Numbered from the stretch's first letter, positions 12,920 to 49,849 are shown. The stretch: DNA of 64,000 bases from an uncultured Bacilli bacterium (GCA_934130545.1 CAKOYD010000001.1:138343-202342); one strand, 5' to 3'. Numbers and translations: made by a program. Notes: a model not told the origin generated them from the sequence alone.

Positions 12920-12920
12920 T

Positions 12921-16848: not shown

Positions 16849-16973
16849 ATTAATTCCCAAAAATCATTAAATATTTACTATTTATCATTTATTATAATTT
16901 TCTTATTTGTATGTGTTATGATGGTGTCATGCGAATAACCAATTCGTAAGATTGAAAGCGAGGTAAATTTGTA

Positions 16974-17183: not shown

Positions 17184-17204
17184 AATATAAGTCATTAATT
17201 AATA

Positions 17205-17239
17205 CTCAATTACATATAATTTGTAGTTGAGTTTTTTAC
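17205..17239 (+). terminator. rho-independent terminator after cspA
   Basis: Stem ctcaattac/gtagttgag (8/9 pairs), loop atataattt, then TTTTTT. Confidence 0.55.
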
Positions 17240-17254
17240 TGCTTTCCTACCCTT

Positions 17255-18095: not shown

Positions 18096-18105
18096 ATATA
18101 ATAAA

Positions 18106-18134
18106 GACACAAGAAAATACACCCTAAGGTGTAC
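18106..18134 (-). terminator. terminator of the MMPL gene
   Basis: Stem tacacc/ggtgta with loop ctaa, then a T-rich run on the minus strand. Confidence 0.4.
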
Positions 18135-18136
18135 TT

Positions 18137-24347: not shown

Positions 24348-24679
24348 CTTTAATTAGGACACTAGCAATTAAACCGGATATATTGCTTTTGGATGAGCCA
24401 TTTTCTGCTCTTGATTATCAATCACGTTTAGCAGTATGTGATGATGTATATAGAATAATTAAAAAAGAAAAGAAAACAATTATTATGATTACTCATGATA
24501 TTGCTGAAGCTATTTCTATGGCTGATAGAATTGTAATACTTACTGGCAGACCCGCAATGGTAAAGAAGATTATGGATGTTAAGTTAACTAATTCTAGTAC
24601 TCCTATTAATAATAGAAAGTGTGTAGAATTTAGTAAGTATTATGAAAGTATATGGAAAGAGTTGGATTTTCATGTATAG
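24348..24679 (+). pseudogene. ABC transporter ATP-binding protein, C-terminal fragment
   Basis: [23 protein letters not shown] (Walker B) and ITHDIAEA (H-loop). In frame with, and directly after, the recombinase stop. Confidence 0.8.
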
Positions 24680-33838: not shown

Positions 33839-35032
33839 TTATACTTTATTATATTTTTTATAATAAATAATACTTGCATATAAAGATACTACCATAAATA
33901 GAATGATAAACGCTATTGATAATGGCCCAGCAGTATTAGGGTTTTGACTAGATGTTGACGAGTTACTTGATGACGTTGAAGAACTTGCTGGTACACTTCT
34001 GTTAATTGTAATTTTGAATGTTGTTTCTTTATCTTCATCACCTAGTACTATTAATTCGAATGTGTTACTTCCAACATTTAATTGGACATCTCTTGGTCCA
34101 TAGCCATCTTTAAACTTAGCATTACTATCTTTTAATTCGACAAGTATTTTTGTACTAGAAACATTGTTATCAACGTTAATAGTATATTCTTTAACACTAG
34201 TTTTTAATTCAATGTTAGTACCGTTTACTTCTAATTTGGATAGTTCAGTATTTATAGTTGTTGATGGTTCATCACCGTCATCTTTAATAACATTCAAAGT
34301 ATATGTCTTAGTCTCGCCATTATTTTCAACAATAATAGAAATAATAGTCTCCTTATCATTTATAGTTAATGTTTTATTTTTTTCTTCACCGTTTACTATT
34401 ATTTTAACAGTGGCATTGCTATCTGCTGGAGTAGCATTTATTGTTAAACTATTTTGATCTTTTTCTAATGCAACATTATATCTTAGATTATCACTAGTAA
34501 AGGATGGTGAAATGTTTACAGGACTAGTTGATAATTCTTGTAAGTTAGTATTATATTGCTTTTTGGAAATAGTTGTTGATATATCATTTGCAGTATATGG
34601 ATTGTCTTTATTACTATCTCCATAGCATGTTATGTTTGATATAGTGACTGTAGTCGTATCAGTGATATTAGCACTAATATTAATTAATTTAGTCGTTTCT
34701 GGTAATGAACTAATTGGACTACTAGATGTAGAGATTGTTATGTTTTCGGCATCTGATGAAGTAACTGTCCAATTCTCTAAAGTACTTGTTCTTTCTTGAT
34801 TAGTAAGTTCGTTAGTAGTAGTCATTTTAAAACTACATGTTTTTATATCTCCTTTAGTATTATTAAAATTACTAATAGATATAACGATTGATGCCTTTTC
34901 ATTTGTACCTATTTCGTTTGGTGCAGACATGATAAATGTTAAGTCACTATCCGCTTTGACAGTACTGGTAAATGACATTAGCATAATTATTAATATTAAT
35001 ACTTTCTTCATAATATCGCCACCTATTTTCAT
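33839..35032 (-). CDS. cell-surface protein with two cadherin-like beta-sandwich domains and a C-terminal sorting signal (NPNTAG + hydrophobic + KKYNKV)
   Basis: Signal peptide, two LS.L.V...Y.V.V-type cadherin-like repeats, a Ser-rich linker, and a sortase-type tripartite C-terminus with a non-LPXTG motif. Confidence 0.6.
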   Translation of the reverse strand: MKIGGDIMKKVLILIIMLMSFTSTVKADSDLTFIMSAPNEIGTNEKASIVISISNFNNTKGDIKTCSFKMTTTNELTNQERTSTLENWTVTSSDAENITISTSSSPISSLPETTKLINISANITDTTTVTISNITCYGDSNKDNPYTANDISTTISKKQYNTNLQELSTSPVNISPSFTSDNLRYNVALEKDQNSLTINATPADSNATVKIIVNGEEKNKTLTINDKETIISIIVENNGETKTYTLNVIKDDGDEPSTTINTELSKLEVNGTNIELKTSVKEYTINVDNNVSSTKILVELKDSNAKFKDGYGPRDVQLNVGSNTFELIVLGDEDKETTFKITINRSVPASSSTSSSNSSTSSQNPNTAGPLSIAFIILFMVVSLYASIIYYKKYNKV

Positions 35033-35201
35033 ATCAATTATAACAATAAAATTATGAATAGTAAATACTTTAAAAATATTTTTACTAAAAATTGTAGGCT
35101 TTATGATGTAAATAAATGCATACTACTATTCAACCTTATATTTTATAATACCTGAAAATAAAAAAAGAATCTAGACATTGCTAAATTCTTAGTGTGTTCT
35201 A

Positions 35202-36095
35202 TTAACTCCATAGGTTACTTGGATATGTACCATTTTGTACTAAATCATTAATTGATTTTACTAGTTGTTCTTTATCTTCTTTATATGTTATTCCGTACCA
35301 TCTGGCAGTGGTTTTTAAAACGTCTACTTCTACCATACCTTTTTTAATTTGTTCAAAGACAATGTCTGGTATTAGGTACTCACATTTATCGATGTTATCT
35401 TTATTTTTCTCTAGGAAATCAGGAAAATGTTCTTCTAGATAATCAAATATTTTTGGTGTGAATGCAAACATATTCATTGATACTGGTGTGTCGTCATCAA
35501 TTTCAAAAGATTCTTCACCATTTAGTGGTGTTGCGATAATTTGATTACCTTTTCTTTCTACTAAACTTTCAGTAAGTTTTTCTAAGTGATTATCTTTTAT
35601 TTGACATATACCTCTTTTTACTGAGCCATTATCAGTAAGAGTGTTGCTAGCAATATATCCAACCATAGCATAGTTATCATTAGTTTTATTTTTTAAATAA
35701 GTACTTATTGTTTTATAAGCATCATAACCATAGAAATCATCTGAATTTATTATTGCAAAGTTTTCTTTAACAACATCTTTGCAACATAGTATGGCATGTG
35801 CTGTACCCCACGGTTTTACTCTAGTGTCTGGCACTTGATAGCCTTCTGGTAAGTTGTCTAGTTCTTGAAAAACATATTCTACTTTAATCTTACTTTCTAT
35901 TCTACTACCTACTGTTTCTCTAAAAATGTCATAATTTTCTTTTTTTATGATAAATACTACTTTATCAAAGCCACATTTTATGGCATCATAAATGGAATAA
36001 TCAATAATGAAATTCCCGTTATTGTCTATTGGCTCAATTTGTTTTAAGCCTCCAAATCTACTGCCCATCCCTGCTGCCATTATTACTAATGTCAT
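35202..36095 (-). CDS. sugar-phosphate nucleotidyltransferase (NTP_transferase family)
   Basis: MAAGMGSRFGG nucleotide-binding loop and KPWGTAHAI. Confidence 0.5.
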   Translation of the reverse strand: MTLVIMAAGMGSRFGGLKQIEPIDNNGNFIIDYSIYDAIKCGFDKVVFIIKKENYDIFRETVGSRIESKIKVEYVFQELDNLPEGYQVPDTRVKPWGTAHAILCCKDVVKENFAIINSDDFYGYDAYKTISTYLKNKTNDNYAMVGYIASNTLTDNGSVKRGICQIKDNHLEKLTESLVERKGNQIIATPLNGEESFEIDDDTPVSMNMFAFTPKIFDYLEEHFPDFLEKNKDNIDKCEYLIPDIVFEQIKKGMVEVDVLKTTARWYGITYKEDKEQLVKSINDLVQNGTYPSNLWS

Positions 36096-36215
36096 ATAAT
36101 TCCTCCTTTAGACTAATTAGTTAATTATATCTTAACATATTATTTTTTAATTGGCAATATTCAGAATATAACATATAAATTTAAATATTACATTATAGAT
36201 AAATTATTATATGCT

Positions 36216-37291
36216 TTATCTTAAAACTAGGATTTGGCCAACACTTAGATTATTAGTTGTTAGATTATTCAATGCTTTAATATTATCAACTGTAGTGCCA
36301 TATTTTCTAGCTATTTGGTATAAGTTATCGCCTGGTTTTACAACATAAGTGGTTTCTGGTGTTGGGATTATTAACTTAGTACCGATAGTTAATATGTCTG
36401 ATGTTAGGTTATTAGCATTTTTTATATTTTGAACAGTGGTGTTGTTTTCTTTGGCTATTGAATATAGCGTGTCGCCTGATTTTACCGTGTATAGTTGGGT
36501 TTCTTCTTCTATTTTAGATGGTATTTTCAATTCTTGATTAACAGATATAAAATTATTGGTTAAGTTGTTAGCTCGTTTTAAGTCATCAACTGTTGTGTTG
36601 AATTGTTTGGCAATGCTGTAAAGGCTATCACCTGGTCTTACTCGGTAGGTATTTGAAGTGGTTGTTCCAGTTGGTACTATTAGGATTTGGCCAATACTTA
36701 GAGTATTACTTGTAAGGTCGTTTAAAGATTTTATGTTGTCGACTGTAGTGTTAAAGTTATTGGCTATTGTATATAGAGTATCGCCTCTTTTAACTGTATA
36801 TAGTTGAGTGCCTTCTTCCATGCTTATCGATGTTGGTACTTGTAGTACTTGGCCGATGGTTAGTGTGTTATTTGTTAGGTTATTGAGTCTTTTTAGCGTA
36901 TCAACAGTTGTGTTGAATTTTTGAGCTATGGAATACAGGGTGTCACCTTTGGATACTTTGTATGTGTTTGTGGCTACTTCGTTTGGTGCAGTGTATGGAA
37001 TGCCTTTGTAGTCTAAGATGGCTTTGATGGTTGCTTCGGCTAGTTGTTGATAGTTATTTTTTAGGAATTGTAAGTCTTGTGGGTTATCTATGAAGCCGTA
37101 TTCAACGATTAACGGTTCGGTATTTCCGGTATTACGATGAATGAAATAGTAGTCTTTGCTGTTATCTGATGGTAGACGACGTTGGTAAACTTTTCGTTTG
37201 GTTTGGCCTAGGTCGCCAATGTTGTTTAGGACTTTGTTGGCTAGTGTAGAGTTGTTTCTTAGGGCGTAGATTACCTCAGCACCGGTGCCAC
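36216..37291 (-). pseudogene. N-acetylmuramoyl-L-alanine amidase (amidase_3), C-terminal part plus four LysM repeats; 5' portion separated by element D
   Basis: The minus-strand frame is open from 37304 with no start codon (GGTGAEVIYALRNN...). Four LysM repeats follow. The track ORF 36216..36821 starts at an internal Met. Confidence 0.75.
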
Positions 37292-37320
37292 CTTGTGAGT
37301 TTAGTTACCGCTAGTAAAAT
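37292..37320. repeat. element D left att arm
   Basis: See the element D entry. Confidence 0.6.
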
Positions 37321-37357
37321 TAATCGATGACTTTTATTTAGCCATCGATTAGCTATT

Positions 37358-37945
37358 TTAATTATTTGTTTGTAATTTTAAAGTTTTTACCATTCTATTT
37401 GTTAATGTTGGTTTGGCAAATTGTTCTTCTAATGTTAAAACACTGCTTTTATATCTGCTGTATGCTTTATCATAGTTTCCTTGTTCAATTTGTTCAACAC
37501 AATAATTTACTATGTTATCGTAAATATAATCATAAATAATACCAGATTTTTCTTCTTTATTAATTGTTTCAACAATTACTGGTGCTACTTCATAATAATG
37601 TTCTATATCTTCTTTTGAAACAAAATTGTCTCTAAACCATCTTAATACTGTTAATTCATAACAATTGTCATCAAATTTTTCTTGAAAATACTTCATACAA
37701 GCTGAAGTCAAATAACAACCACCAGACCCTGAACTTGTATCACTTTTATCAGGTCCATGTGTTGTAGAACTCCAAGAACCTTTATCATAGTTAATATTTA
37801 CATGAGTTGCATCATGTGGTTTATCTACTTCACCGCCATAAAAACTAATGTGATCATTACCATTTTTATCTGTGTTTACCTTTATAGTAACCCCTTTATC
37901 ATTTACATAATTTCCATACTTATCTCTATCTGCCATTATTAACAC
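37358..37945 (-). CDS. hypothetical protein (element D, att-proximal)
   Basis: ORF with GGCYLTSAC...CYELTVLRWFRDNF. No family recognised. A hairpin aatcgatgg...ccatcgatt follows its stop. Confidence 0.35.
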   Translation of the reverse strand: MLIMADRDKYGNYVNDKGVTIKVNTDKNGNDHISFYGGEVDKPHDATHVNINYDKGSWSSTTHGPDKSDTSSGSGGCYLTSACMKYFQEKFDDNCYELTVLRWFRDNFVSKEDIEHYYEVAPVIVETINKEEKSGIIYDYIYDNIVNYCVEQIEQGNYDKAYSRYKSSVLTLEEQFAKPTLTNRMVKTLKLQTNN

Positions 37946-38291
37946 CTCCCATTTTAATTTCTGACATTCTTAAAGAAATAATTGACTCTAACCACAACAA
38001 AGACCATTCAGCAAAATAAGAGCTTAAAGTTTTTGTTTCAGTATCCAAATCAATTAAATCAAATTTTATATTTTGTAATATTTCTTCATCTATAGATACC
38101 AAATTCCCTTTATTTATATATGTTGCTAAAATCGTATTAATTTCAACTAAAACTTTTTCAAAATTTTCTTTTTGCTCTTTGTATATATCTAATTGAGTTG
38201 AAGCTGTAACATAATAAATTAAATTTTTAAAAGCATAATCGATATTTTCTCTTGTTGGGTTTCCTACATTAAAAGTTTCTTCCATTAACAA
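37926..38291 (-). CDS. hypothetical protein (overlaps the start of 37358..37945)
   Basis: ORF only. Overlaps the downstream gene by 20 nt. Confidence 0.35.
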   Translation of the reverse strand: MLMEETFNVGNPTRENIDYAFKNLIYYVTASTQLDIYKEQKENFEKVLVEINTILATYINKGNLVSIDEEILQNIKFDLIDLDTETKTLSSYFAEWSLLWLESIISLRMSEIKMGGVNNGR

Positions 38292-38346
38292 TTCTCCTTT
38301 CTTGTCTTATATTATAGACTTTTTTTAAAATAAATCAACAATTTTA

Positions 38347-40011
38347 CTATTTAAATTTCATTTTCCCATTTCTCCCATAAGGATTTCTAACTAAATGCCT
38401 ATTTTCATACATAAAATTAATTTCTGGTATTACATCATATTTAAATATAATATTTATGTTTCTATTTTCATCAATTACTATCTTATCTATTAAAGTATTT
38501 ATTAGCTCTTTTTTAGGTTTTTTTAAATCTAATAGTTCTTTTATTTTCTTGGTATAATCTGGCAGTATATTTGCTTTATTCTTTATGTTTTTCTTTTTTA
38601 TTTTTTCTTCTTCAATTATATTATTAATCTTTTTTAATTTAGTTTCTGATTCAACAGATAATTCTTTATATAATTCAGTAGAAATTATATTATTACATCT
38701 ATCACTATATAAAGTAGATAATTTATTCATAATTTGTTCTTTTTCTTTTGTTAAATCTTTTATCTTTTTATCTATATCTTCTGTTTCTTTATGAACGTTT
38801 TTTTGTACTTCTTTATTTAATTCTCCTATATCTAGTTCTTTTATAAATTTTGATACTGAATTATTAAATTGCTCTAATATTTGTTCTTCTAAATAATCAT
38901 AAGGATAAAAGTGTGAACTACATCTTCCTCTTTTTGGATCTCTAGAATATCTATTACAATTAATAGACCAATAATCAAGTTTCTTTCTATAATAAACAGA
39001 TAGTCTATTGCCACACTCTTTACAAAATATTTTTCCTTCTAAAATTTTTTTGGGTCTTTCTGTTTTTAAACTATAATTTCTAGTTTTTCTTTTTCCTAAA
39101 GAATTAACATATTTAAAAGTTTCTTTATCTACTAATGGTTCATGAGTATCTTCAACTATTACCCATAAACTTTCATCTAAAGTTATTTTCTTCTTTGATT
39201 TATAATTTACTTTTGTTTGAGTATGTTGAACCATATCTCCAGTATAAATTCTATTACTTAAAATTTTCTTTACTGTTGATATATTCCAACTATCTCTATC
39301 AATCAATCTAGAAGAATAATTAGTTTTCTTATATCCTGCTGGTGTGGGTACATTCATATTATTTAATCTTGTTGCTATTTCTGTTGGTCCTATTCCTTCT
39401 GCTCTCCACTTAAATATATTTTTTACAATTGGTGCAGTTTCTGGATTAGGTATTAAATGTCCTTTATCCAAAGGATCTCTCATATAACCATAACAAGGTT
39501 GACTACCTATAAATTTACCATTCTTTCTTTTATCGTTTAATACATTTCTTATTTTTATAGAATTTTGTTTACTATAATAATCATTACAAGCAATTATAAA
39601 TGTTGAAGAATCATTACTAGCTTGATTTTTAAAACTATCATATGATTCAAGTATAGATATAAATCTTATATTATTTTCAGGAAAAAAAGTTTCAATATAA
39701 TATCCCGTCATAACATGATCTCTACCAAATCTAGATAAATCTTTAACTACTACACAATTTATCTTTTTTTGTTTTATATCCTCTAACATTTTTTGAAATC
39801 CTGGTCTATCAAAATTAGTACCAGAATATCCATCGTCTACATATTCTCCACATAGATTAAAATTATTATTTTTAACATAACTTCTTAGTAATTCTTTTTG
39901 ATTAATAACACTTTCACTATCAGATTCATATTTTTTATCTTTATCTTCTTGAGATAATCTTATATAGATTCCAACATTGAAATCTATTTCAGTTAAGTAA
40001 GTATTATACAT
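38347..40011 (-). CDS. large serine recombinase (paralog of LSR 1)
   Basis: VGIYIRLSQEDKD...VINQK...DDGYSGTNFDRPGF...LSRFGRD. Closest in motif string to LSR 1. Confidence 0.85.
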   Translation of the reverse strand: MYNTYLTEIDFNVGIYIRLSQEDKDKKYESDSESVINQKELLRSYVKNNNFNLCGEYVDDGYSGTNFDRPGFQKMLEDIKQKKINCVVVKDLSRFGRDHVMTGYYIETFFPENNIRFISILESYDSFKNQASNDSSTFIIACNDYYSKQNSIKIRNVLNDKRKNGKFIGSQPCYGYMRDPLDKGHLIPNPETAPIVKNIFKWRAEGIGPTEIATRLNNMNVPTPAGYKKTNYSSRLIDRDSWNISTVKKILSNRIYTGDMVQHTQTKVNYKSKKKITLDESLWVIVEDTHEPLVDKETFKYVNSLGKRKTRNYSLKTERPKKILEGKIFCKECGNRLSVYYRKKLDYWSINCNRYSRDPKRGRCSSHFYPYDYLEEQILEQFNNSVSKFIKELDIGELNKEVQKNVHKETEDIDKKIKDLTKEKEQIMNKLSTLYSDRCNNIISTELYKELSVESETKLKKINNIIEEEKIKKKNIKNKANILPDYTKKIKELLDLKKPKKELINTLIDKIVIDENRNINIIFKYDVIPEINFMYENRHLVRNPYGRNGKMKFK

Positions 40012-40279
40012 TCAATCCTCCAATCTTCTTACTTGACTGAGTATTAAGACAATTTAATAATACCGCATTATTAAAAAAATTACAGCGCATTATTTTCTTT
40101 TTCTATCTCTTCGATAAGATATTTTAAAATAAGATCTTTAAAAGTTATATCATTTTCATTCATAGCAACACCTACTTAAAGTTATGTTGTTTTCATTTAT
40201 TTTATTATTGTTTATATTCATTTTATATTCCCCCTTTTATTCAATAAAAAATCCCTATATTATTTTGATATAAGGACTA

Positions 40280-40486
40280 TTATTCATTTATAACTGAATC
40301 AATGTTTTTTATAATATATTCTATTAATAAAGTTTCCATTATAGATTGTATTGTAATTTTTTTATTTTCTATCACTCTTTTAAGAGCCATTTTTGTATGA
40401 TCATCAATTCTAAATTTAACTTGATTATTTTTTGCTAAAGCCATTTTTTCACTCTCCTTTCTAAAAATTGGTACTATTGTATGCAC
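40280..40486 (-). CDS. ribbon-helix-helix (CopG/Arc-like) DNA-binding protein
   Basis: KFRIDDHTKMALKRVIENKKITIQS beta-strand plus helix pattern. Real start is probably the internal Met. Confidence 0.45.
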   Translation of the reverse strand: MHTIVPIFRKESEKMALAKNNQVKFRIDDHTKMALKRVIENKKITIQSIMETLLIEYIIKNIDSVINE

Positions 40487-40625
40487 ATTAATTTTTAAAC
40501 ACTATTTTAGGAAAAGAATTTTGATAAAGCAGGATAAACCTGTTTACAAACAACTCACCAGTGGTGAGTTTTACCTTATTTTATAAGCATTTATATAATT
40601 AAGTAGTGTTTACACTTTTCATATT

Positions 40626-40686
40626 TGTTATACAATTGTATACTTTTAATTTCTTATATTATAAGGTATGTTATACAATCGTACAC
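40626..40686. promoter_or_regulatory. two copies of TGTTATACAAT(T/C)GTA(T/C)AC upstream of the RHH gene
   Basis: Copy 1 contains the perfect palindrome TATACAATTGTATA. Copies are 43 bp apart. Confidence 0.4.
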
Positions 40687-41073
40687 ATTTTTTAAAATAA
40701 CTTACTAAGATTTTTGGTACTAAAAACATAATAATATAATCAATACTTAGTACCAAAACTTTTTATATTGAATTTAAAGGGAGATTTTTGAATATGAAAA
40801 AAGCACTGACCTTCTCTATGAGGCCAATGCCGTAAATACATATAATTGCATTATTATTTCATATTCTACTATATTGTATCACATGATTGCCGAAAGTCAA
40901 TTAGTAATAAATGTTGTATTAATCTTGATAAAAATGTTGTATAAAATCTCTATAAAGCCATATAAATACTACATTTATACAAATAGATACTTTAATAGAT
41001 TATATGTTATTGACAAATATATGTAATTTTTACTTCTTAAATTTTTATCAAAATAATGTTGTTATTATAACTA

Positions 41074-41466
41074 TTATTTATAATTCCAAATACCTAATTG
41101 TCCTTTAACTTTTATTGGAGTAATGGGTTTCACATCTTCCAAAACCCATGCATATCTTCCAACTTCATAATGACCTGCAATAAAATTATTTTTGTTTTTT
41201 TCTTTCTCTTTTTTTATAAACTCTTCTGTCATATAAATACAATCAACTAAATTACACTTACATATTATATGTCCATAATTAAGTTCATCTTCATTATATA
41301 GTTCAGATAATCCTTTTCTTTCTTTTTCTTCTTTTCTTATTTTTGCAACTCCAGCTTGTATGTATAATTCTCCACGATAATTAGTTTTCCAACTTCTTGT
41401 TTCAATATATTTAACTTTATTTTTTATCAATGTAGCAAAGGGTTCTTTAATTGTTAATACTTTCAT
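41074..41466 (-). CDS. ASCH-domain protein (PUA-like fold)
   Basis: KPFATLIKNKVKYIETRSW...GHIICKCNLVDC...GRYAWVLEDVKP pattern. Confidence 0.55.
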   Translation of the reverse strand: MKVLTIKEPFATLIKNKVKYIETRSWKTNYRGELYIQAGVAKIRKEEKERKGLSELYNEDELNYGHIICKCNLVDCIYMTEEFIKKEKEKNKNNFIAGHYEVGRYAWVLEDVKPITPIKVKGQLGIWNYK

Positions 41467-41483
41467 AAACTATATTACTCATT

Positions 41484-42623
41484 TTAATCTAAAACTGCTT
41501 GTTTTAAGTCTGAAGCCAATTTATTCATAGAGTCATTTAATTTATCAATATCATGCTTTGACATAAAATATTCTTCACCATCATTACTACTTCTATCTAA
41601 AATATCAAATGTAATTCTATAAACATGATCACTTAATAAATTATTGTTTTGCCACATACAATCTTTTTTAGCTTTAATATAAAAATTATTTTTATTAATC
41701 TTTAATATATCAATATCTTCTGGTGATGAAACATAAAAACCTGTTGTTCTTACTTTTTTACTATTTTTATATGTAATACCTTCTTCATCTACCTTTTCAT
41801 ACCAGTTAGAATTAAAATAATATAATCCATTTTCATTTTTGGTACAATAATCCAACAAATTACCACGATACGCATCTTTTAAAGCATTATTAGTTTGATA
41901 TTCTTCACATGCTTTTATATATTCAATGCTAACACGTGACTCACATTTAACAGCCTTTTTCATAAAATCTTCTGCTGTCGTAACTACTAACAATTTTACA
42001 GAACCTAATGTTTTATCTGATAACTCAACTTTATGAGGTTGCGCTATATTACCTTCATCGTTTGAAATTATAAATATTTTATCATCCATATGTAAATCTA
42101 AGAAAATTTGTTTCGAAAATAACGCTTTATTTAATAGTGGTATTAAGTAATCTACTCTAAAATTTGCCTCAGCCATTACTAAGTATTTTTGATCATAACC
42201 TTGATTTCTTAATGAAATCATATATTGATTTTTTTTGAATGTCTTAACCTCTATTTGTGGTCTTTTTTCTATTGGAAACCAGTGATTATCAAACTTTAAA
42301 AATGGAATAGCTCTCTTTTTATATTTTATTCCAATAACATCTGGAGCAATCCCCGCAGTTTTAGGATTATAATCATAATAATCGGTAATAACTTCAACCT
42401 TTTCGCCTTTAAAAACTTGAGGTAAAATAATTTTATTAAATAAAACACTTTCAGGAATTATATTTATCCATCTATCAAAAATTCCACCCATATAATCTGC
42501 TTTAGATGTTAAAGCACCTTGCATAGGTCTATCACCTTGCATTTGTGTTAAATTAGCAATAAAATATACTGCCTTTTTAGCATCATTAATACTTATTTTT
42601 ACTTCATTCATACTAACCTCCAA
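41484..42623 (-). CDS. putative type II restriction endonuclease partner of the Dcm methyltransferase
   Basis: Immediately downstream of, and co-oriented with, the C5-MTase. Candidate PD...(D/E)xK (APDVIG ... IEVK). No named family recognised. Confidence 0.4.
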   Translation of the reverse strand: MEVSMNEVKISINDAKKAVYFIANLTQMQGDRPMQGALTSKADYMGGIFDRWINIIPESVLFNKIILPQVFKGEKVEVITDYYDYNPKTAGIAPDVIGIKYKKRAIPFLKFDNHWFPIEKRPQIEVKTFKKNQYMISLRNQGYDQKYLVMAEANFRVDYLIPLLNKALFSKQIFLDLHMDDKIFIISNDEGNIAQPHKVELSDKTLGSVKLLVVTTAEDFMKKAVKCESRVSIEYIKACEEYQTNNALKDAYRGNLLDYCTKNENGLYYFNSNWYEKVDEEGITYKNSKKVRTTGFYVSSPEDIDILKINKNNFYIKAKKDCMWQNNNLLSDHVYRITFDILDRSSNDGEEYFMSKHDIDKLNDSMNKLASDLKQAVLD

Positions 42624-42625
42624 AA

Positions 42626-43795
42626 TTATTCAGACATATCTGATTTTTCTAATAGTTCTAACAAGTCAGTAGCAAGCATTTGTATTACTGGAACAGAAAC
42701 TGCATTTCCTGCTTGTTTATATAGTTGAGAATCGGGATATGGCCTTCCATTTATAACCGTAGGTAATTTGTATCCATTATCAATAGGAAAGCCCTGTAAT
42801 TTAAAAGTTTCTTTTGGTGTTAACTTTCTGATACCATCATTTACTTTTATCAAAGGCACATTATGACCACCAGTACCCATATTTGCTGTAAGTGTGGGGC
42901 AAACACCACTTTGGTTTTTTCTTACATACATACCTCTTCTACATTGATAAAATTCGTACATTTCATCAATTTGTGTATTTAAATTTATTTTTTCTTTTTT
43001 ATTAGATTTTTCAAATTCTTCATCTGACATAAAATAGTTTGGATATTTTTCTTTTGTATAATAATACTTAGTTGCATTTTCTTTTGTCAAATTATAATCA
43101 ATAACCTTTTTTATATCTTTAATTCTTGATGCTTTATCTTTCTTCTTTATCCTACTTTCAATATCCTTAAATATTTCAAAATTTTTTATATCTTTTTCAT
43201 TTAATAAACCTATAATATATATTCTTTCTCTATTTTGTGGTACATTAGTATAATCCATGGTATTTAATACTTTTTCAAAAACTGTATATCCACAATCTTC
43301 TAGTTTTTGTTTTATATGTACATAAGTTTTTTTATTATCATGAGCCTGCAAATTTTTCACATTTTCAAGAAATAATACACGAGGTTTATAAAATTTTTCT
43401 CCCAGTTGTTCAATTAAATCTATAATATTTAAAAATAAATTTCCTCTATCATCTTCAAACCCTTTGCGCTCACCAGCAATACTGAATGCTTGACAAGGAA
43501 AACCACCATTCAAAATATCTATCGGTTCACTTAATATTTTATCATGTAATTTTTGATAATATTTTTGTTGTGCTTTATCTGTTGCTTGTTCTGGATGAAG
43601 TACTAATTTTATATCACCTTCTAGTAATTGATGTGAAAAATTAGTTCTATATGTCTCACATGCATATTCATCTATTTCATTTGCCCAAAGCAATTTATAT
43701 TTAGAATTTTTTGTCTTTGCATTTTTAAAACCTAAGCATATTCCACCAACACCTGCAAATAAACTTCCAACCTTATATTCAACCATATGTACCAT
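42626..43795 (-). CDS. DNA (cytosine-5)-methyltransferase
   Basis: Motif I LFAGVGG, motif IV GFPCQAFSIAG, motif VI ENV, motif X QAGNAVSVPV. Confidence 0.9.
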   Translation of the reverse strand: MVHMVEYKVGSLFAGVGGICLGFKNAKTKNSKYKLLWANEIDEYACETYRTNFSHQLLEGDIKLVLHPEQATDKAQQKYYQKLHDKILSEPIDILNGGFPCQAFSIAGERKGFEDDRGNLFLNIIDLIEQLGEKFYKPRVLFLENVKNLQAHDNKKTYVHIKQKLEDCGYTVFEKVLNTMDYTNVPQNRERIYIIGLLNEKDIKNFEIFKDIESRIKKKDKASRIKDIKKVIDYNLTKENATKYYYTKEKYPNYFMSDEEFEKSNKKEKINLNTQIDEMYEFYQCRRGMYVRKNQSGVCPTLTANMGTGGHNVPLIKVNDGIRKLTPKETFKLQGFPIDNGYKLPTVINGRPYPDSQLYKQAGNAVSVPVIQMLATDLLELLEKSDMSE

Positions 43796-43886
43796 CCTTT
43801 CTAATTTTTATGTGCTAATATAATTATAACATGAATTTCAATTATTTTATTGTATAAGTTAGCAAAACACTAGGAATATTATTTTT

Positions 43887-44807
43887 TTATAATTCTCTAG
43901 GACAATTAGGCTTATATTTAACATCATTAAATCCATATACTTTTTTACAATCATGACAGATAACTGCTATAAAATCAGCGCCATTAATTTTATGCCCATC
44001 TCCCTTTTGTATTAAAATATTTTTTGAATTACATTCAGGACAAAATATATCTTTTCTCATAACTTCATCTTGACTATAAGAATCTCTTATTATTTCATAA
44101 CCATTTCTATCATATTTAGGATAAAATTCATACTTATTAAACACTTTAATTCTTCCAAACATAAACTCTAATTTATCAATTTGTTTTTCGATATGATAAT
44201 GTCCACAATACCACTTATCATAATCAATAGACTCTTCTAGTTTATCTAAAAACTTTTCCATACTTTTATCTACATTAGATTGATCGATGCCTTTCATAAA
44301 TACTTCAGTAGGTTCATATTTTAATGGACAAGTATGTGATAAAACAATATCAATATGGTGTCCTTTATATTTATTTAAAATATTATCCATTTCTTTTTTA
44401 CTAAGTTGTTCATCTTTAAACCAAGGATATCTATATATAATTCTATAATTTTTATCAACAGAATAAGCGCCACCAATGACTAATACTTTTTTATTATCTA
44501 TATCATACAATTCACCATTTTTAGCAAATATTAAATTGGGATATGCTTCTTCAATAAATACTTTACCACCAAACATATCAATTTCTTTATATGTTGATAT
44601 ATTTTCTGGTCTTTCTTCATGATTACCTTGAACGCAAAATAATTTTATATTATAACTATTTAACTGTTCTTTTAACGTCTTATCTCTTTCATCTAAATAA
44701 TAATTAATTCCAGTATCACCTAATATAATCAACATATTATTTTTGTTTTTTTCTATATTATGCAATCTATAAAATTCTCTATGTGTATCTCCCGTTATAT
44801 AAATCAT
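43887..44807 (-). CDS. calcineurin-like metallophosphoesterase with C-terminal Cys4 zinc ribbon
   Basis: GDTHRE, LGDTGINYY, QGNHEE and CGHYH phosphoesterase motifs. C-terminal CPECN...CHDCKK. Confidence 0.6.
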   Translation of the reverse strand: MIYITGDTHREFYRLHNIEKNKNNMLIILGDTGINYYLDERDKTLKEQLNSYNIKLFCVQGNHEERPENISTYKEIDMFGGKVFIEEAYPNLIFAKNGELYDIDNKKVLVIGGAYSVDKNYRIIYRYPWFKDEQLSKKEMDNILNKYKGHHIDIVLSHTCPLKYEPTEVFMKGIDQSNVDKSMEKFLDKLEESIDYDKWYCGHYHIEKQIDKLEFMFGRIKVFNKYEFYPKYDRNGYEIIRDSYSQDEVMRKDIFCPECNSKNILIQKGDGHKINGADFIAVICHDCKKVYGFNDVKYKPNCPREL

Positions 44808-44823
44808 ATATTCCTCCTATAAA

Positions 44824-46863
44824 TTATAACTGTTCTATTACATATTTTGATAAAAAACTTATTTTAAATTTTGAAACATTTTCTTTTAATTTAATTTTTA
44901 ATTTCTCAATGTCTTCGACTTCTTCCCCAATAACATTGATTATATTTTCAATATCTTTTTCATATACTCCAAGACTTTTAAGATTTTTTCTAATTTCTGA
45001 ATTTGAAAAATATTGAACTTCAATAGGAAGTAATATTTTTTGTTCTACTAAATTTAATTGTTTTTCAGTAGCAGCACAACATTTTAAAAAGTAATAAACT
45101 ATTTTGATTTTTGAATATATTTGATGTTCTATCATACTATATTTCAATTTTATAGTATTTGATATTAATGAATCAATATTTTCTTTGTTTTTTTCTAAAA
45201 TTTTATTTATAATATATTTTATACTATATCTATTTTTATGTAATGAATAACTTATTATTTTAGAGTCTATATTCACTTTATGATTTATTGTTGTTTCACA
45301 ATATATAATTTTTAAAAGCTGACATAGTAAATTATATCTTCCTATAGTTTCGTCTTTTATCATTTTATTTATAATATCCAATAACGAACTATAATTTGCT
45401 CTAAAATAAGTATATAACTCGTTAATTGTAGAAAAACGATATTTGTATCCAATATTTTCAATATAATCTTTATAAGTTATATTTAACTCATTCAAAAAAG
45501 TTATAAAATCTTCATTATTCTCAAAATTTCCATTAATAATATCTATATCTTTACTTTCATTATCAGTTAATTCAAATTTAATTGTTTTTATTGCATCATT
45601 AAATACATATTCTTTGTCCTTTGGACCTTTTAAATAATATGCATATCCCAAAAAATGTTTATTTAACCTTCCCGTTCTACCAACCAAATTATAAAAATCA
45701 AATGCATCAAATTCTGTTTTATTACGCTGAGGTGAAGTTATGATAATGTTTTTTGAACATATATTAACACCCTCAAGTAAAGTAGAAGTACAAAGCATAT
45801 TTTTGAAATTTTCTTCTTCTTCATATAAATCTATTTGCATTAATCTTACACCTAATGGCAATTGACCATTATGAACTAAAAAACCACGTTCCATAGCTTT
45901 AATAACATACCAATCTTCATGGATTTCATCTTTTGCCCATTGAAGAAAATTTGAAATCAATTCATTTTTTAGATTAATAATTGGATATGTATTACATATT
46001 TCTCTATTAACGAAATTTGCTAATTCTTTCACCGTAGAAAAATATATCAAATTTTTTTGTGTTAATAATTTTCCTTTTAATAAATCTATTGTTTTATTAT
46101 ACTTTTCTTCTTTGCTATTTAAATTGATCTTAATAAGCTCATTTACCACCGGCGAAAAATTACTTTTATACATAATAGGTTGCTTAGATAAAATATTTCT
46201 ATCTTCTATATCTTTAATAAATGGCGCAAGTAAAACATATTTCTCCGCCTTGTCAGCTAAATATTTATAAGCCATATTCAAAACTAATACTCTATCATTT
46301 GTTTCATCGGTTTTTAGCTTATAAACCTCATCAATAACTAACAAATCTATCTTTTCTATATTATTATAAAACCTACATTCCATAACTTTATCATGTGTTA
46401 ATATAAAAATATTGTGTTTATCAAAATCATATTTTTTATTTTCATCATAGTTAATATGTGTTTTATAAACATTTAATTTTGAAGTATATTTCTTTATTAT
46501 CTTTTTTAAATATTCATCAACAAGTGCCAAAGTAGGTACAATAAGAACAATATTTTTTGGATAGAACCTAGCAATATATTCAAATATACAAAAAGTTTTT
46601 CCAAAACTAGTAGGTGCACTAATAATAACAGCGGAATTATTATTTATTATATTTATTATTTTTAATTGCTCTTTATGTAAAATTATTTCTTCATCTAAAC
46701 TAGATATTGCAAAACTATTAAACAATGCAGAGTCAAAACTAAATTCTTTTGAATACATATTTAATCCTAAATTAAATAAGTCATCTGACAATATTTGAAT
46801 GTTTTTCTTATCTTCCTCAATTTTTTTTATATATTTTTCCCTAATCTCACTGATGGTTTCCAT
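44824..46863 (-). CDS. SF2 helicase (Hachiman HamB-like candidate)
   Basis: Motif I APTSFGKTF, motif II DEVYKL, motif VI VGRTGR. Translationally coupled to the upstream 304-aa gene. Confidence 0.6.
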   Translation of the reverse strand: METISEIREKYIKKIEEDKKNIQILSDDLFNLGLNMYSKEFSFDSALFNSFAISSLDEEIILHKEQLKIINIINNNSAVIISAPTSFGKTFCIFEYIARFYPKNIVLIVPTLALVDEYLKKIIKKYTSKLNVYKTHINYDENKKYDFDKHNIFILTHDKVMECRFYNNIEKIDLLVIDEVYKLKTDETNDRVLVLNMAYKYLADKAEKYVLLAPFIKDIEDRNILSKQPIMYKSNFSPVVNELIKINLNSKEEKYNKTIDLLKGKLLTQKNLIYFSTVKELANFVNREICNTYPIINLKNELISNFLQWAKDEIHEDWYVIKAMERGFLVHNGQLPLGVRLMQIDLYEEEENFKNMLCTSTLLEGVNICSKNIIITSPQRNKTEFDAFDFYNLVGRTGRLNKHFLGYAYYLKGPKDKEYVFNDAIKTIKFELTDNESKDIDIINGNFENNEDFITFLNELNITYKDYIENIGYKYRFSTINELYTYFRANYSSLLDIINKMIKDETIGRYNLLCQLLKIIYCETTINHKVNIDSKIISYSLHKNRYSIKYIINKILEKNKENIDSLISNTIKLKYSMIEHQIYSKIKIVYYFLKCCAATEKQLNLVEQKILLPIEVQYFSNSEIRKNLKSLGVYEKDIENIINVIGEEVEDIEKLKIKLKENVSKFKISFLSKYVIEQL

Positions 46864-47761
46864 AATCGTCTATCCTTTCATAAATATATTTTAAAAATTC
46901 ACCTTTAAACTTTTCTCTATTTAAAATCGGTAGTGAAATACAGTAATATATAGTATCAAGATTAAACATTTGTTTTTTTTCAATTTTATCAAACTCTCTC
47001 AAAATTTCATCAATTTCTATTTTGCCTCCATGCATAACAAATAATGGAATCCCTATACTTTTTATATTCTCCCGATTCACAAATTCACTAAAAGTCAAAC
47101 ATTCTTCCACGCTTTCAATATAATTGTTTTCTATTATTGGCATCTTATAATTATCAATATTTGATAATACTAACATATATTCATCTTCGATTTGTTTTTC
47201 ATAACTTAAAAGAGAATTGTTTAGTGCAACTATTCCCTTATTTAAATCAGAATAGAACTTTGATTCTCCAAATAGCAACATATTATTTTGTTTATTGTAA
47301 AACAAAGTATCAATTCCAAAAACACTCATATTTGGATCAGTTATCATCGTTAATTTTGGAATAATACAGGTCATCTTAAAATATTCAAGTAATATTACAC
47401 TAAAAATATATTCTCCTATTTTTCCAATCTTATCTTTTCTAAATTTAAGTAAGGAAGTTTTATCTTTCCCAGTAATATCAATAAATTTTTCAAGTTCTCT
47501 ATAAAATTGATTTTCATCAAATAGTATATTTTCTTCATCTATAAATTTTTTTAAATTCTTATAAAGTTTAGCATAGTTTTTTTTCGTTGGTGTAAAACAA
47601 ATTGATTCTTTATTTTCTATATATTTTAATAATCTTTCTTCGTTAAAAAAATATTTAAACAACAATTCATAAAAATTGTCTTCGTTAATCTTTATATGCA
47701 CAATAGAATATTTGTTTTTTTCTTCATATACAATAAAATCATCATATTTTTTACTTATCAT
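46847..47761 (-). CDS. DUF1837-like PD-(D/E)xK protein (Hachiman HamA-like candidate)
   Basis: ~300 aa with GIDTLFY ... LLFGESKFY (a D ... ExK arrangement). Immediately upstream of and overlapping the helicase gene. Confidence 0.45.
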   Translation of the reverse strand: MISKKYDDFIVYEEKNKYSIVHIKINEDNFYELLFKYFFNEERLLKYIENKESICFTPTKKNYAKLYKNLKKFIDEENILFDENQFYRELEKFIDITGKDKTSLLKFRKDKIGKIGEYIFSVILLEYFKMTCIIPKLTMITDPNMSVFGIDTLFYNKQNNMLLFGESKFYSDLNKGIVALNNSLLSYEKQIEDEYMLVLSNIDNYKMPIIENNYIESVEECLTFSEFVNRENIKSIGIPLFVMHGGKIEIDEILREFDKIEKKQMFNLDTIYYCISLPILNREKFKGEFLKYIYERIDDYGNHQ

Positions 47762-47952
47762 ATTACTACACCTCTACTTCAAAAAAATAAACAGTATCCA
47801 TCTTAAAAAGATTAAATACTGCTTATCTTATGTAATAATTATACCATATATTTCCAAAATTTTTATATTTTTGTTAATATTTAATAGTCAAAAATGGATT
47901 TTTGTATCTTTTTTTCTACTTTTTTTAAATTTTAGTGTCCTAATACTCAATC

Positions 47953-47980
47953 ATTTATTTGTAGTGGTAACTGAACTCTG
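47953..47980. repeat. element D right att arm
   Basis: Reverse complement mirrors the left arm. Confidence 0.6.
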
Positions 47981-48272
47981 CACCTCCTGCATTTAAGTGA
48001 TTAGATATAACCACCACATTAGGATCATTACCAAATGCCTCCAGTATCTCCTTTGTTCTATTAGCAGGCGTTATTGTCTCATCACTATCTCTAGTAATAT
48101 AAACAGGAATTCCTAATTCTTTAAGTCTATTATACATATATTGAGATATTAATAAATTATAATCTTTTTCATAAGTATTTTCTCCAATAGCGCCACTATC
48201 CGAACCGCCATGTCCGGCATCAATAACCACACCGGTTAGTTTATTAGTGTTATTCATTTTATCACTCCTCAT
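47981..48272 (-). pseudogene. N-acetylmuramoyl-L-alanine amidase N-terminal fragment
   Basis: VVIDAGHGGSDSGA...ISNHLNAGG, then the element arm, then a stop. Confidence 0.75.
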
Positions 48273-48317
48273 AATAATTTATGAAAAATAATTAAAATAG
48301 TTAAAATTTATTAATTT

Positions 48318-49229
48318 TTACATTCTCTTAGAATTAACTAGTGGCTTTAATACCCTTGCTTTTAAATTAGGTAATTTAGTTATGGGAATACCTTCTTTTT
48401 TCTTAGTAGTAAACTCTAATAAATATTCTTCTAATGTTCTATCATTTATACTGTATAGTAATCTAAATATATATTCTTCATCATAATAATACAAATCATC
48501 GTAAGTTATATATCCATTATCTAGAGAATATTTAGTTATCCTAGCAAGTAGTTCCATCATATAATTATCTTCGTTAGAATGACAATATCTATCAATAGTA
48601 TTACTTAGTTCTACTACTTTACTAGCCACTTCATAATTAGTAAATCCTATCTCTTCCTTACCTTCTTCATTTATATATATTGCTATACTATTTAATATAT
48701 CTTTTATATCTCGTTTACCAATAATCTTAGTCCATCCTAGAGAATTTAGCATTATACCATCCAATCTGTCTGCACATAGTTTTGGCCTAGCATTATCCAC
48801 TAGACTATATTTTTTAAAATCAATTATCTCATTAGCACTAACACCGTCTTTTAACAAGCATTGTTTAAGATAATTATCAGATAGAACAATTCTTTCAGTA
48901 TATTCTTCAGTACTTTCTTGGTTAGCATAATCTTTATTCATATAATCAATAACATGAGAAAAACATGGTGTCCCTACATCATGAAATAGTCCAGCAAGAG
49001 TGGCTTTTCTATCAGATGATATCTTATATGTCAACAAAGCTGTTGTTAGAGAATGCGTATATCGGCTTATATAAGTACTGAAATTATATATATCTTTAGA
49101 AGCATAGTCCATTCCACAAAAGTATCCTATCTTCTTGAGTCTAATCAAACTTGGCGTATCTAAATATTTAACGAGAAAATCAGGCATATTAGCATAGCCA
49201 AGTAAATATAAGTAATAGTTTAAGTCCAT
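48318..49229 (-). CDS. HD-domain phosphohydrolase
   Basis: H...HD motif (LFHDVGTPCFSHVIDY). Confidence 0.6.
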   Translation of the reverse strand: MDLNYYLYLLGYANMPDFLVKYLDTPSLIRLKKIGYFCGMDYASKDIYNFSTYISRYTHSLTTALLTYKISSDRKATLAGLFHDVGTPCFSHVIDYMNKDYANQESTEEYTERIVLSDNYLKQCLLKDGVSANEIIDFKKYSLVDNARPKLCADRLDGIMLNSLGWTKIIGKRDIKDILNSIAIYINEEGKEEIGFTNYEVASKVVELSNTIDRYCHSNEDNYMMELLARITKYSLDNGYITYDDLYYYDEEYIFRLLYSINDRTLEEYLLEFTTKKKEGIPITKLPNLKARVLKPLVNSKRM

Positions 49230-49393
49230 AATACATTTCTCCTTTACTAATAATTTTTTATCTTATTATAGCATAAACTTTACTATATTAGGTAGACATT
49301 TATTTACAATAAATTTAAGTAAAATATTTTACATTTTTAATTTACATATTAGTTGATAGATGCTATACTTATGGTAGGAGGAGTGATTTATTT

Positions 49394-49849
49394 ATGTTTA
49401 ATATTGATAGTTCTTTTAATAATGTTGCACAAGCTGGTATTTGGTTTATCATCTCTATGGTAATTGCTATTATTGGTGGTATTTGTGTATACTATGTTTT
49501 ACTTACTAAGGAGAATTATGAGAAGTGTACAGGTTATACAAAGAAATTGTTTGATTTTGTTACTTTCAAGAAATTAATTTTAGAAGATATATTAAAGATT
49601 TTATATATAATTGTTGCTATTTATATTACTTTATCTTCATTAGGATTAATATCTACAAGTTTTGTTTTATTCTTAGTACAATTAGTATTTGGTAATATTA
49701 TTGCTAGAATTGGTTTTGAATTTTCTTTATTAATGATAACTATATGTAAGAATACTACGGAAATTAATGATAAGTTAAAACAAAATATAGTTTCTAAGAA
49801 GGAAGAAAAGAAAGAAACTAAAAAAGAAGAAAAGAAAGAAGATAAATAA
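49394..49849 (+). CDS. small membrane protein with a Lys/Glu-rich tail
   Basis: Three TM helices, and a KKEEKKETKKEEKKEDK tail. Confidence 0.45.
   Translation: MFNIDSSFNNVAQAGIWFIISMVIAIIGGICVYYVLLTKENYEKCTGYTKKLFDFVTFKKLILEDILKILYIIVAIYITLSSLGLISTSFVLFLVQLVFGNIIARIGFEFSLLMITICKNTTEINDKLKQNIVSKKEEKKETKKEEKKEDK

Follow-up and report, generated by a model that had tools for sequence, protein, structure and literature searches.

Sporulation gene-intervening elements, to which vfbin and vrin belong together with skin, SPbeta, gin and yin, offer a frame of comparison for the locus described here. This locus lies in a 64,000-nucleotide stretch of DNA (the window; coordinates are counted from its first letter) from an uncultured Bacilli bacterium (GCA_934130545.1, CAKOYD010000001.1:138343-202342), in which a cell-wall hydrolase gene of the Amidase_3-LysM type (the amidase gene) is split by an island, element D, with a single large serine recombinase (LSR). 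The element gin, located in gerE of Bacillus cereus ATCC 10987 (Abe et al. 2017, PMC5595907), resembles the window's island in being a non-phage element with a serine recombinase and restriction-modification (R-M) cargo, and in splitting a short conserved coding region, there of a sigma-K-phase mother-cell gene, with in-frame restoration on excision (PMC5595907). It differs in its size of 28.6 kb, its three recombinases, its partner GirX and a sporulation-specific excision that was shown by experiment (PMC5595907), whereas the window's island has one LSR and an amidase target, is known from sequence alone and belongs to a family that is far more widespread and has interchangeable cargo. The skin (sigK) and SPbeta (spsM; SprA/SprB) elements of Bacillus subtilis, skin of Clostridioides difficile and yin (yabG) of Clostridium botulinum are likewise LSR-bounded and located in mother-cell genes (PMC4191935, PMC5499854, PMC5025042, PMC10747680) and, as in the window's family, different elements converge on one target gene. 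These elements are prophages or prophage remnants with a recombination directionality factor (RDF) under sigma-E/K control, whereas the window's island has neither phage genes nor a detectable internal sporulation promoter. An amidase gene is not among the reported targets of intervening elements (sigK, spsM, spoVFB, spoVR, gerE and yabG) or the LSR targets in the literature searched.

Staphylococcal cassette chromosome (SCC) elements integrate at the 3' end of rlmH without destroying the gene and use two recombinases. SCC elements (SCCmec, Ccr) share with the window's family the organization of LSR-moved cargo islands without transfer genes that use one conserved bacterial attachment site (attB) across species, carry variable cargo and form tandem or composite arrays; unlike them, the window's island occupies a mid-gene site in a catalytic motif, so that the gene is split. 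Defence-island hot spots are similar in that a fixed chromosomal site holds alternative defence systems according to strain, and the HamA and HamB pair of the window is canonical, yet the hot spot described here is set by an LSR attB in a coding sequence rather than by flanking core genes or a tRNA, and its cargo is not exclusively defence. The target gene itself resembles CwlC and CwlD of Bacillus, in which an Amidase_3 domain is followed by peptidoglycan-binding repeats, and has a cwlC-like sigma-K-type promoter; its best curated match is CwlD, although it scored 78.7 bits against the CwlD equivalog model (TIGR02883; cut-off 221.55), and its repeats are of the LysM type, unlike the SPOR repeats of CwlC. 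The class of mechanism is already known, namely that of an LSR island which interrupts a coding sequence, may be a sporulation intervening element and acts as a defence-island hot spot. New here are the Amidase_3-LysM target, the breadth of its use, which spans hundreds of contigs and no fewer than 12 host alleles and involves several recombinase lineages and two sites in one gene, and the modularity of the cargo.

The split amidase gene and its attachment sites

All genes in the region 36216-48272 are on the minus strand, in a window that is AT-rich (~26% G+C). An earlier annotation made without database searches (the sequence-only reading) had proposed that an amidase gene is split here by an LSR island, and this observation was confirmed: the gene, encoding an Amidase_3 domain and five LysM repeats, is cut at ...SNHLNAGG/GTGAEVIY... 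(a slash marks the join here and below) by a 10,687-bp island at 37294-47980. The 5' frame has a good ribosome-binding site and ATG 48257 as its start; it encodes MNNTNKLTGVVIDAGHGG...VVVISNHLNAGG and, past the junction, continues into unrelated island sequence up to a stop at 47955; a second in-frame ATG at 48272, 2 nt past the -10 element of the promoter, is unlikely to be used as a start. The 3' frame lacks a start codon and opens at 37293 with GGTGAEVIYALRNN..., ~10.7 kb downstream of the 5' part. In silico removal of the island, with a single AGGTG core kept, yielded an in-frame 449-aa gene (454 aa from ATG 48272) with the joined protein sequence ...SNHLNAGGGTGAEVIY... and the rebuilt attB ...AATGCAGGAGGTGGCACCGGTGCT.... 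Pfam Amidase_3 matched the joined protein across the junction, over profile positions 1-173 of 174 (4.4e-31), and Pfam found five LysM repeats instead of the four counted in the sequence-only reading. The fragment coordinates given there (47981-48272 and 36216-37291) and the in-frame restoration are borne out by the AGGTG junctions and by the Amidase_3 match across the join. In an alignment to solved Amidase_3 domains (Cwp6, CwlV, CwlD and LytH), the break was located between the DAGHGG motif and the G-x-E motif, each with different metal ligands. Because the first zinc ligand is parted in this way from the other active-site residues, both fragments should be inactive, judging from what is conserved in the family.

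The phage-type attachment site (attP) rebuilt from the two junctions (...GGTAACTAAACTCACAAGGTGCAGAGTTCAGTTACC...) consists of imperfect inverted arms, GGTAACTAAACTC and GAGTTCAGTTACC, around AGGTG. The best 23-bp span of these arms has 18 matches, as had been noticed earlier, and this score was reached by only 11 of 20,000 random 30-mer pairs from the window. The LSR matched PF00239 (3.6e-22), PF07508 (2.9e-24) and PF13408 (1.2e-10), is similar to SPbeta SprA over its full length (E 5e-19) and has CcrB as its best NCBIfam match, far below the cut-off. The recombinase domain set, the attL and attR sites that resolve into attP and attB with a short core, and an empty site in relatives identify the insert as an LSR element, in agreement with the earlier proposal.

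An intact amidase gene is present at this position in relatives, on contigs L001 and L002, where the site is empty and the neighbours are those of the window (an HD-domain gene upstream; genes for a nucleotidyltransferase, a cadherin-like protein, a penicillin-binding protein (PBP) and MraY downstream). The joined protein was 99.3% identical to the product of this intact gene over all 454 residues (tblastn), and both contigs align to the window as two blocks that meet at the core and overlap by exactly 5 bp. The split allele of the window and the L001/L002-type intact allele differ by 100 synonymous and 3 non-synonymous changes, which, together with the end-to-end identity, upholds the claim that both pieces belong to a single gene. 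The joined sequence, used as query in a protein search, retrieved an intact 449-aa protein, P0001, at 99% identity. When the halves were joined in silico in all five host backgrounds, open genes of 393-470 aa resulted, and the reconstituted amidases of the four other hosts equal intact proteins letter for letter, on 134, 19, 1 and 2 public contigs. Contig L048, with an empty site, aligned to occupied contigs at 100% over 2311 bp and 99.9% over 1632 bp, the alignments overlapping by the core. The empty-site strains also carry an extra 305-aa gene without a Pfam match (L001 750-1667; L002 1710-2627) between the HD-domain gene and the amidase gene; it is missing from the window, where the gap between these two genes is ~15 bp.

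Element D is read here as a site-specific LSR cargo island dedicated to the amidase attB, with a probability of roughly 0.85. As the junction sequences show, the attP of the island recombined with an attB inside the N-A-G-G/G-T-G-A-E codons of a chromosomal Amidase_3-LysM gene, and the island is non-autonomous, integrative and moved by the LSR. The attB is held constant by selection on the catalytic motif, and because this motif conserves it, one recombinase can dock in amidases that are 51-62% identical. The recombinase module alone is constant, the cargo beside both ends being swapped. A late mother-cell role of the target would account for tolerated occupation, through excision in the mother cell or through cheap loss of the gene, each of which we rate a little short of an even chance.

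A dedicated integration hot spot with exchangeable cargo

In gut metagenomes, relatives of the window's LSR with 84-98% identity make up more than 120 protein clusters, one of them annotated from 'Firmicutes bacterium CAG:884', and the same LSR family occupies the same codon in no fewer than 12 diverged amidase alleles, with differing cargo. The fetched family loci have a constant order, in which a ~100-aa Amidase_3 fragment is followed by variable cargo, then by the recombinase and one or two variable open reading frames (ORFs), and last by a LysM fragment; the chromosomal flanks are wholly unlike between hosts (CofD/UDG; acetate kinase/SWIM; NERD/HRDC; HMA/P-type ATPase). Identity among the host amidases is only 51-62%, with synonymous sites saturated; the L040-type island is 96.7% identical to that of the window across 5.6 kb (methylase to recombinase), and the L032-type recombinase gene is 93.5% identical to the window's. 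The island family was shown to spread horizontally between distant hosts.

The join point was the same GGT/GG at every locus examined, and the P arm of the window also adjoins the amidase 3' fragment in contigs L032-L045, L055-L062, L064, L065, L067-L069 and L071-L073. A scan of an independent metagenome collection with the P arm only gave 10 hits, eight of which abut seven different amidase alleles at the same codon and two of which abut the P' arm, with no other target. The recombinase family was thus shown to be dedicated to the amidase site encoding NAGG/GTGAE. The earlier suggestion that an amidase locus serves as attB for the delivery of defence genes generalizes to at least 12 alleles, with KAP NTPase, SMEK_N, type II and type III R-M and PDC-S72 among the cargo.

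The window's island carries Hachiman, phosphoesterase and R-M genes, and in L019, from the same species, two genes without assigned function stand in place of Hachiman and the phosphoesterase. L040-type islands encode a 963-aa KAP NTPase with the same R-M system as the window, and L032-type islands a 1367-aa SMEK_N protein with a Sau3AI/MutH-type R-M system (REase_II 1.6e-105). The cargo of L051 comprises an ImmR/ImmA-like pair, a phosphoesterase, two methylases and an HNH nuclease (REase_II 5.2e-65), and that of L053 comprises Fic, GH10 and APH genes on one side, the far side of the recombinase holding PqqD and three radical-SAM/SPASM genes. Within the family, the cargo is most often, but not always, defence. 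The pair in L051 (2374-3235) consists of helix-turn-helix and Peptidase_M78 genes beside the amidase 5' fragment, which suggests damage- or signal-induced control of this variant. In L053, the segment from the recombinase to the amidase 3' fragment (11735-18750) holds a cluster of the ribosomally synthesized and post-translationally modified peptide type, acetyltransferases, CYTH and DUF4085.

Natural P-core-P' junctions were found in L066 (2999-3045, on a 331.8-kb contig) and L070, inside long contigs and between two elements. At these junctions, a remnant element (an 84-nt LSR tail and a 535-aa ORF) meets an island 95.7% identical to that of the window, as measured from the phosphoesterase gene through the gene of the 379-aa protein to the start of the ASCH gene. 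The junctions show tandem or composite arrays, not circles, and because they occur between adjacent elements, the cargo is probably swapped via such arrays followed by deletion.

Among species representatives (one genome each), the gene is split at the same point in 6-7 of the 17 with a recognizable orthologue, and the split representatives carry at least three kinds of arm (GGTAACTAAAC, GTTACACTTTGA and others). The recombinase of the L003 island is 50% identical to the window's LSR, and its cargo consists of a type III R-M system and the candidate system PDC-S72. On a single host haplotype, defined by an identical 290-aa 3' fragment, at least four different element ends are joined at one nucleotide. 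Furthermore, members of another LSR family (531-535 aa, DUF4368) have integrated into the amidase gene of two hosts at its DAGHGG-coding motif, leaving the gene in three pieces. The amidase gene is a dedicated integration hot spot for cargo islands. The DUF4368-type insertions are seen at L045 2700-2790 compared with L040, and at L034 1103 compared with L033. In two other species (L009 556-3377 and L010 8381-11200), an amidase gene that looks intact is immediately preceded, on its own strand, by an LSR gene with 32% identity to that of element D.

Strains of one host diverge by 0.1% in the island and by 1.3-5.7% in the flanks, so that the island is ~10 times less diverged, and split and intact amidase copies have the same amino-acid variants. 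Given this low divergence and these common variants, gains and losses at this site have been recurrent and recent. Well over 100 contigs of one host species carry the split form, compared with ~6 that carry the intact form; the fragments stay open, and no decayed copies were seen. The dN/dS ratio of the split versus the intact allele was 0.007, and 12 synonymous versus 6 non-synonymous differences were counted among split alleles. Purifying selection on the split state was dropped as evidence, the island being younger than the alleles and the variants being common to intact and split copies.

Cargo and small genes of the window's island

The features of the split gene and of the island are listed in Table 1. 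The hamA and hamB genes are adjacent and co-oriented, as in type I Hachiman, and homologues of the phosphoesterase are encoded in the sibling islands of L051, L066 and L070. The cargo named in the sequence-only reading stood up for Hachiman, the phosphoesterase and, as a C5 methylase, the modification part of the R-M pair; the restriction part of this pair, in contrast, is assigned from a PD...ExK motif, with no family match. The 379-aa protein in question has 551 homologues, none of them named, and in an alignment of 38 of these neither P94-D95 nor E125-x-K127 varies. In an AlphaFold2 model (pLDDT 89.4), P94-D95 is placed at the start of one strand and E125-x-K127 within a later strand, as in PD-(D/E)XK nucleases, and a Foldseek search of the model against the PDB gave nothing significant, EcoRV recurring at E 0.4-1.8. 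Its invariant motif beside a methylase indicates that it is probably a restriction enzyme.

Table 1. Coordinates of the features of the split amidase gene and of element D in the window
Feature	Position	Strand	Evidence or remark
Sigma-K-type promoter motif ACTATTTTAATTATTTTTCATAAATTA	48275..48301	-	ends 17 nt before ATG 48257
Amidase 5' fragment	47981..48257	-	residues 1-92 of the 449-aa protein; holds DAGHGG, first zinc-ligand motif
attL copy of core AGGTG	47981..47985	-	common to both junctions
P' arm of attP	47951..47980	-	CAGAGTTCAGTTACCAC..., inverted relative to P arm; related P' arms in L019, L040, L066
HamA (DUF1837), Hachiman	46847..47761	-	Pfam HamA 2.7e-13, 50.7 bits (cut-off 25); PADLOC HamA 1.6e-11
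HamB helicase, Hachiman	44824..46863	-	PADLOC HamB 6.4e-94; Pfam DEAD/ResIII; 17-nt overlap with hamA
Calcineurin-like metallophosphoesterase, C-terminal Cys-rich tail	43887..44807	-	Pfam Metallophos 8.1e-12; PHROG 1649 4.5e-30
C5 cytosine DNA methyltransferase	42626..43795	-	Pfam DNA_methylase 1.6e-76; PADLOC MTase_II 5.9e-101
379-aa protein, probable type II restriction endonuclease	41484..42623	-	no family match; always adjoins methylase
ASCH-domain protein	41074..41466	-	Pfam ASCH 1.6e-4; PHROG 3193 2.2e-35
Promoter-like site TTGACT-16-TG-TACAAT, then terminator-like hairpin	40802..40900	-	in 587-nt non-coding stretch
54-aa ribbon-helix-helix-like protein, first gene of recombinase module	40280..40444	-	weak Pfam RelB 8.5e-4, below cut-off
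Two overlapping micro-ORFs just upstream of LSR gene	40080..40221	-	21 aa ...LSRCCYE 40221-40156; 27 aa MNENDITFKDLILKYLIEEIEKENNAL 40163-40080
LSR, 554 aa	38347..40011	-	Pfam Resolvase, Recombinase, Zn_ribbon_recom; PHROG integrase 1.1e-104
Two island ORFs without assigned function	37358..38291	-	121 aa at 37926-38291; 195 aa at 37358-37945, weak CFI-box-CTERM match
Terminator-like hairpin	37321..37351	-	between last island gene and P arm
P arm of attP	37294..37323	-	...GCGGTAACTAAACTCACA
attR copy of core AGGTG	37289..37293	-	common to both junctions
Amidase 3' fragment	36216..37293	-	GTGAEVIY..., remaining zinc and catalytic residues, five LysM repeats, stop 36216

The 54-aa ribbon-helix-helix-like protein is kept in L040 (94%), L051 and L053, and peptides with the pattern of the micro-ORFs are encoded upstream of the LSR genes of L032, L003, L051, L053 and L045 and of the window's LSR gene at 22874 (plus strand). 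The 54-aa protein and the two conserved micro-ORFs are candidate RDFs. The micro-ORFs upstream of LSR genes encode 25-47 aa, end 67-117 nt before the LSR gene and have the amphipathic pattern (F/I)K(D/E)LIL.YL...I, which persists where the surrounding DNA is unalignable; they could specify a very small directionality factor or a leader peptide. In the family of the element D recombinase, a 19-21-aa ORF ending in ...L(N/S)RC(C/Y)YE overlaps the start of the next ORF. The slot of the two ORFs between the LSR gene and the P arm varies among sibling islands.

The hairpin in the non-coding stretch lies ~40 nt past the promoter-like site with its extended -10 element, ahead of the recombinase module, with repeated ATTGTATAAC motifs and an inverted repeat, TTTTGGTAC...GTACCAAAA, nearby. 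This stretch could encode a small RNA or act as an operator region; an Rfam search of 35000-49500 gave no match.

Elsewhere in the window, other LSR elements interrupt an ABC-transporter operon at two points, with LSR genes at 10431-11942, 13164-14579 and 22874-24319. The split pieces (9983-10450 with 17339-17683, and 17676-18095 with 24383-24679) belong to an NMT1-type binding-protein gene and an ATPase gene, the latter cut in frame within LSGGMRQRV/ALIRTLA..., and neither is a sporulation gene. These inserts carry a LytTR two-component pair, an MMPL protein and a TetR regulator.

Sporulation context and competing explanations

The consensus for sigma-K of B. subtilis is AC at -35, a 16-17-bp spacer and CATAnnnTA at -10. 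That of C. difficile has AC at -35 and CATATAAT at -10, sigma-E having the same -10 element and ATA at -35 (PMC3789822). The sequence AC-N16/17-CATAnnnTA occurs only four times in all across the two strands of the 64-kb window (128 kb), including the copy at the amidase gene, and the same motif was found 14-21 nt upstream of the amidase start in eight independent host lineages whose upstream regions are otherwise unalignable. CATAnnnTA alone precedes the amidase gene in at least 9 of 11 lineages, compared with 3.3% of 364 other ORFs (positions -45 to -8), where CA precedes only 3.7% of TAnnnTA sites. A SleB/CwlJ-like hydrolase gene beside the amidase gene in several hosts also has a CATA-type -10 element. 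The PBP encoded two genes downstream of the amidase gene (31831-33738, minus strand) passed the SpoVD equivalog cut-off (714 versus 688 bits), and genes for GerA, GerAC and a spore permease, SleB-like and CtpB-like genes flank the amidase gene in sibling hosts. In a near-identical strain (L049 14579-16745), a Peptidase_S11-Gate-Gate trio is located ~14 kb beyond the left end of the window; NCBIfam gave the Gate proteins no name, and we take the trio to resemble the dacB-spmA-spmB operon of B. subtilis. The hosts are uncultured 'Bacilli/Tenericutes' metagenome-assembled genomes, and related uncultured orders are predicted to hold both sporulating and non-sporulating families (PMC10868615). From their gene content, the hosts are probable spore-formers. 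CwlC and CwlH, late hydrolases of the sigma-K/GerE phase, lyse the B. subtilis mother cell (PMC517825), and the amidase is most likely a late mother-cell wall hydrolase that is functionally CwlC-like.

A number of observations weigh against the reading of element D as a dedicated amidase island, or against its link to sporulation. The exact reconstituted protein of the window is not on record as an intact gene, the 99% relative being the only one, and no excised circle was found: a degenerate attP pattern had no match in JGI metagenome contigs or IMG/VR, and no junction was seen on a free contig. No RDF was recognized, and the small island ORFs had no family match. Pfam results for all island ORFs included no relaxase, coupling protein or type IV secretion gene (oriT was not searched), and no transfer machinery that could account for the spread is present in the island. 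L053 shows that the cargo is not always defence, and L032-type islands (L032-L039, 1310-1360 and 13040-13075) have a different P' arm and 11 bp, GGTGGCGATGG, common to attL and attR; their left arm looks like a direct, not an inverted, copy of the P arm. As to sporulation, the role proposed for the amidase is drawn from a promoter motif and a gene neighbourhood, and this motif includes a minimal sigma-A -10 element (TAnnnT) and shares its geometry. Because it also fits sigma-A, the sigma-K assignment rests on the conserved CA and the lack of TTG at -35. Strict sigma-E/K motifs on the coding strand were not found upstream of the LSR gene or the small island genes; the single relaxed match in the island (41024-40999) fits a sigma-A promoter too.

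The two amidase fragments could in principle be remnants of two different paralogues or pseudogenes that flank the island by chance, the more so as their base composition is somewhat unlike and tandem amidase paralogues are present in some relatives. However, the join is in frame, with full-length identity to single intact genes that have the same neighbours, Pfam Amidase_3 is complete only across the join, and the same break point recurs in more than 20 independent assemblies. Two paralogues would align poorly to single intact orthologues, the opposite of what was found, and this explanation was ruled out on the end-to-end identity to intact alleles with the same flanks. It is also improbable, although less extremely so, that the island is a degraded prophage or phage satellite, or the amidase a prophage endolysin. 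PHROG matches were obtained for the LSR (integrase), the ASCH protein and the phosphoesterase, one source gives the label Caudoviricetes to a homologue of the 379-aa protein, and known intervening elements are often defective prophages (PMC4191935). Against a phage origin, no capsid, tail, terminase, lysis or replication genes were found in the window's island or in any sibling island examined, attP and the P arm have no matches in IMG/VR, and the amidase gene lies between an HD-domain gene and a nucleotidyltransferase/SpoVD/MraY/FtsW cluster, a position kept in relatives.

For the dedicated amidase island, two accounts of how occupation is tolerated are about equally likely, neither of them quite reaching an even chance. 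The island may be a sporulation gene-intervening element, a link suggested by the conserved sigma-K-type promoter in probable spore-formers: the LSR and a directionality factor of the island would excise it in the mother cell and rebuild a sigma-K-driven amidase that acts late, for example in mother-cell lysis, while the forespore would keep the island and inherit its cargo without cost to the gene. Alternatively, the insertion may plainly inactivate an amidase that is redundant or dispensable in the gut, the gene being lost while the island is present and excision being an ordinary event in growing cells. The promoter, with its low background (~3%), is left unexplained by plain inactivation, as is the convergence of at least three att-arm types and a second LSR family on one gene at two sites, which recalls the skin elements on sigK; nor does plain inactivation account for the lack of decay among well over 100 split copies in a species where the split form is near fixation. 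A developmental switch also agrees with the spore-related genes in and around the loci, the precise restoration of the frame, the existence of intact alleles identical to reconstructions and the full-length resemblance of the LSR to SprA. A precedent is gin, a non-phage LSR element with R-M cargo (PMC5595907), and in B. subtilis cwlC and cwlH encode sigma-K-phase mother-cell lysis hydrolases (PMC517825). Plain inactivation is favoured by the lack of sporulation control signals in the island, with neither a sporulation-type promoter nor a recognizable RDF, and of any circle or rejoined junction from the same sample. The other LSR elements of the window cut conserved motifs of non-sporulation genes, such as the LSGGMRQRV/ALIR... 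motif of the ABC ATPase, which tells against the sporulation layer of the reading, and the ImmR/ImmA-like pair of a sibling island is typical of ordinary mobile-element induction. Two tandem amidase paralogues are present in some relatives (L011, L012 and L016), and empty and occupied sites share protein haplotypes, with several elements per haplotype, which implies frequent heritable gain and loss. The open fragments need no selection, as the island is much younger than the host alleles, and the purifying-selection test is uninformative, the island being younger than the divergence of the strains.

A wider form of the sporulation account, more tentative still, is that, for the whole clade of LSR islands in uncultured gut spore-formers, a sigma-K-dependent mother-cell amidase serves as a docking site that is safe for the germline, excision occurring only in the dying mother cell. 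Interchangeable cassettes (Hachiman, R-M, KAP, SMEK and others) would then be kept in the spore without cost to the host gene, and excision might be directed by an unusually small factor, either the conserved 25-32-aa micro-ORF product or the 54-aa ribbon-helix-helix protein.

The NAGG/GxGAE-coding site of the Amidase_3-LysM gene is a precise hot spot for the exchange of cargo, both defence and other, among uncultured gut Bacilli that are poorly known, and the occurrence of occupied, empty and differently occupied states within single species provides a natural system for studying the turnover of defence islands. A recombinase site that is held by protein function across amidases of 51-62% identity is also of practical interest for broad-host-range LSR tools in genome engineering. 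If the sporulation link is true, developmental gene rearrangement would take in a cell-wall hydrolase as well as lineages for which metagenomes are the only source, and a mid-gene insertion near fixation without decay of the gene would be explained. If germline-safe docking is true as well, the amidase gene would be the seventh, and by far the most widespread, target of sporulation rearrangement, tied to the turnover of defence islands.

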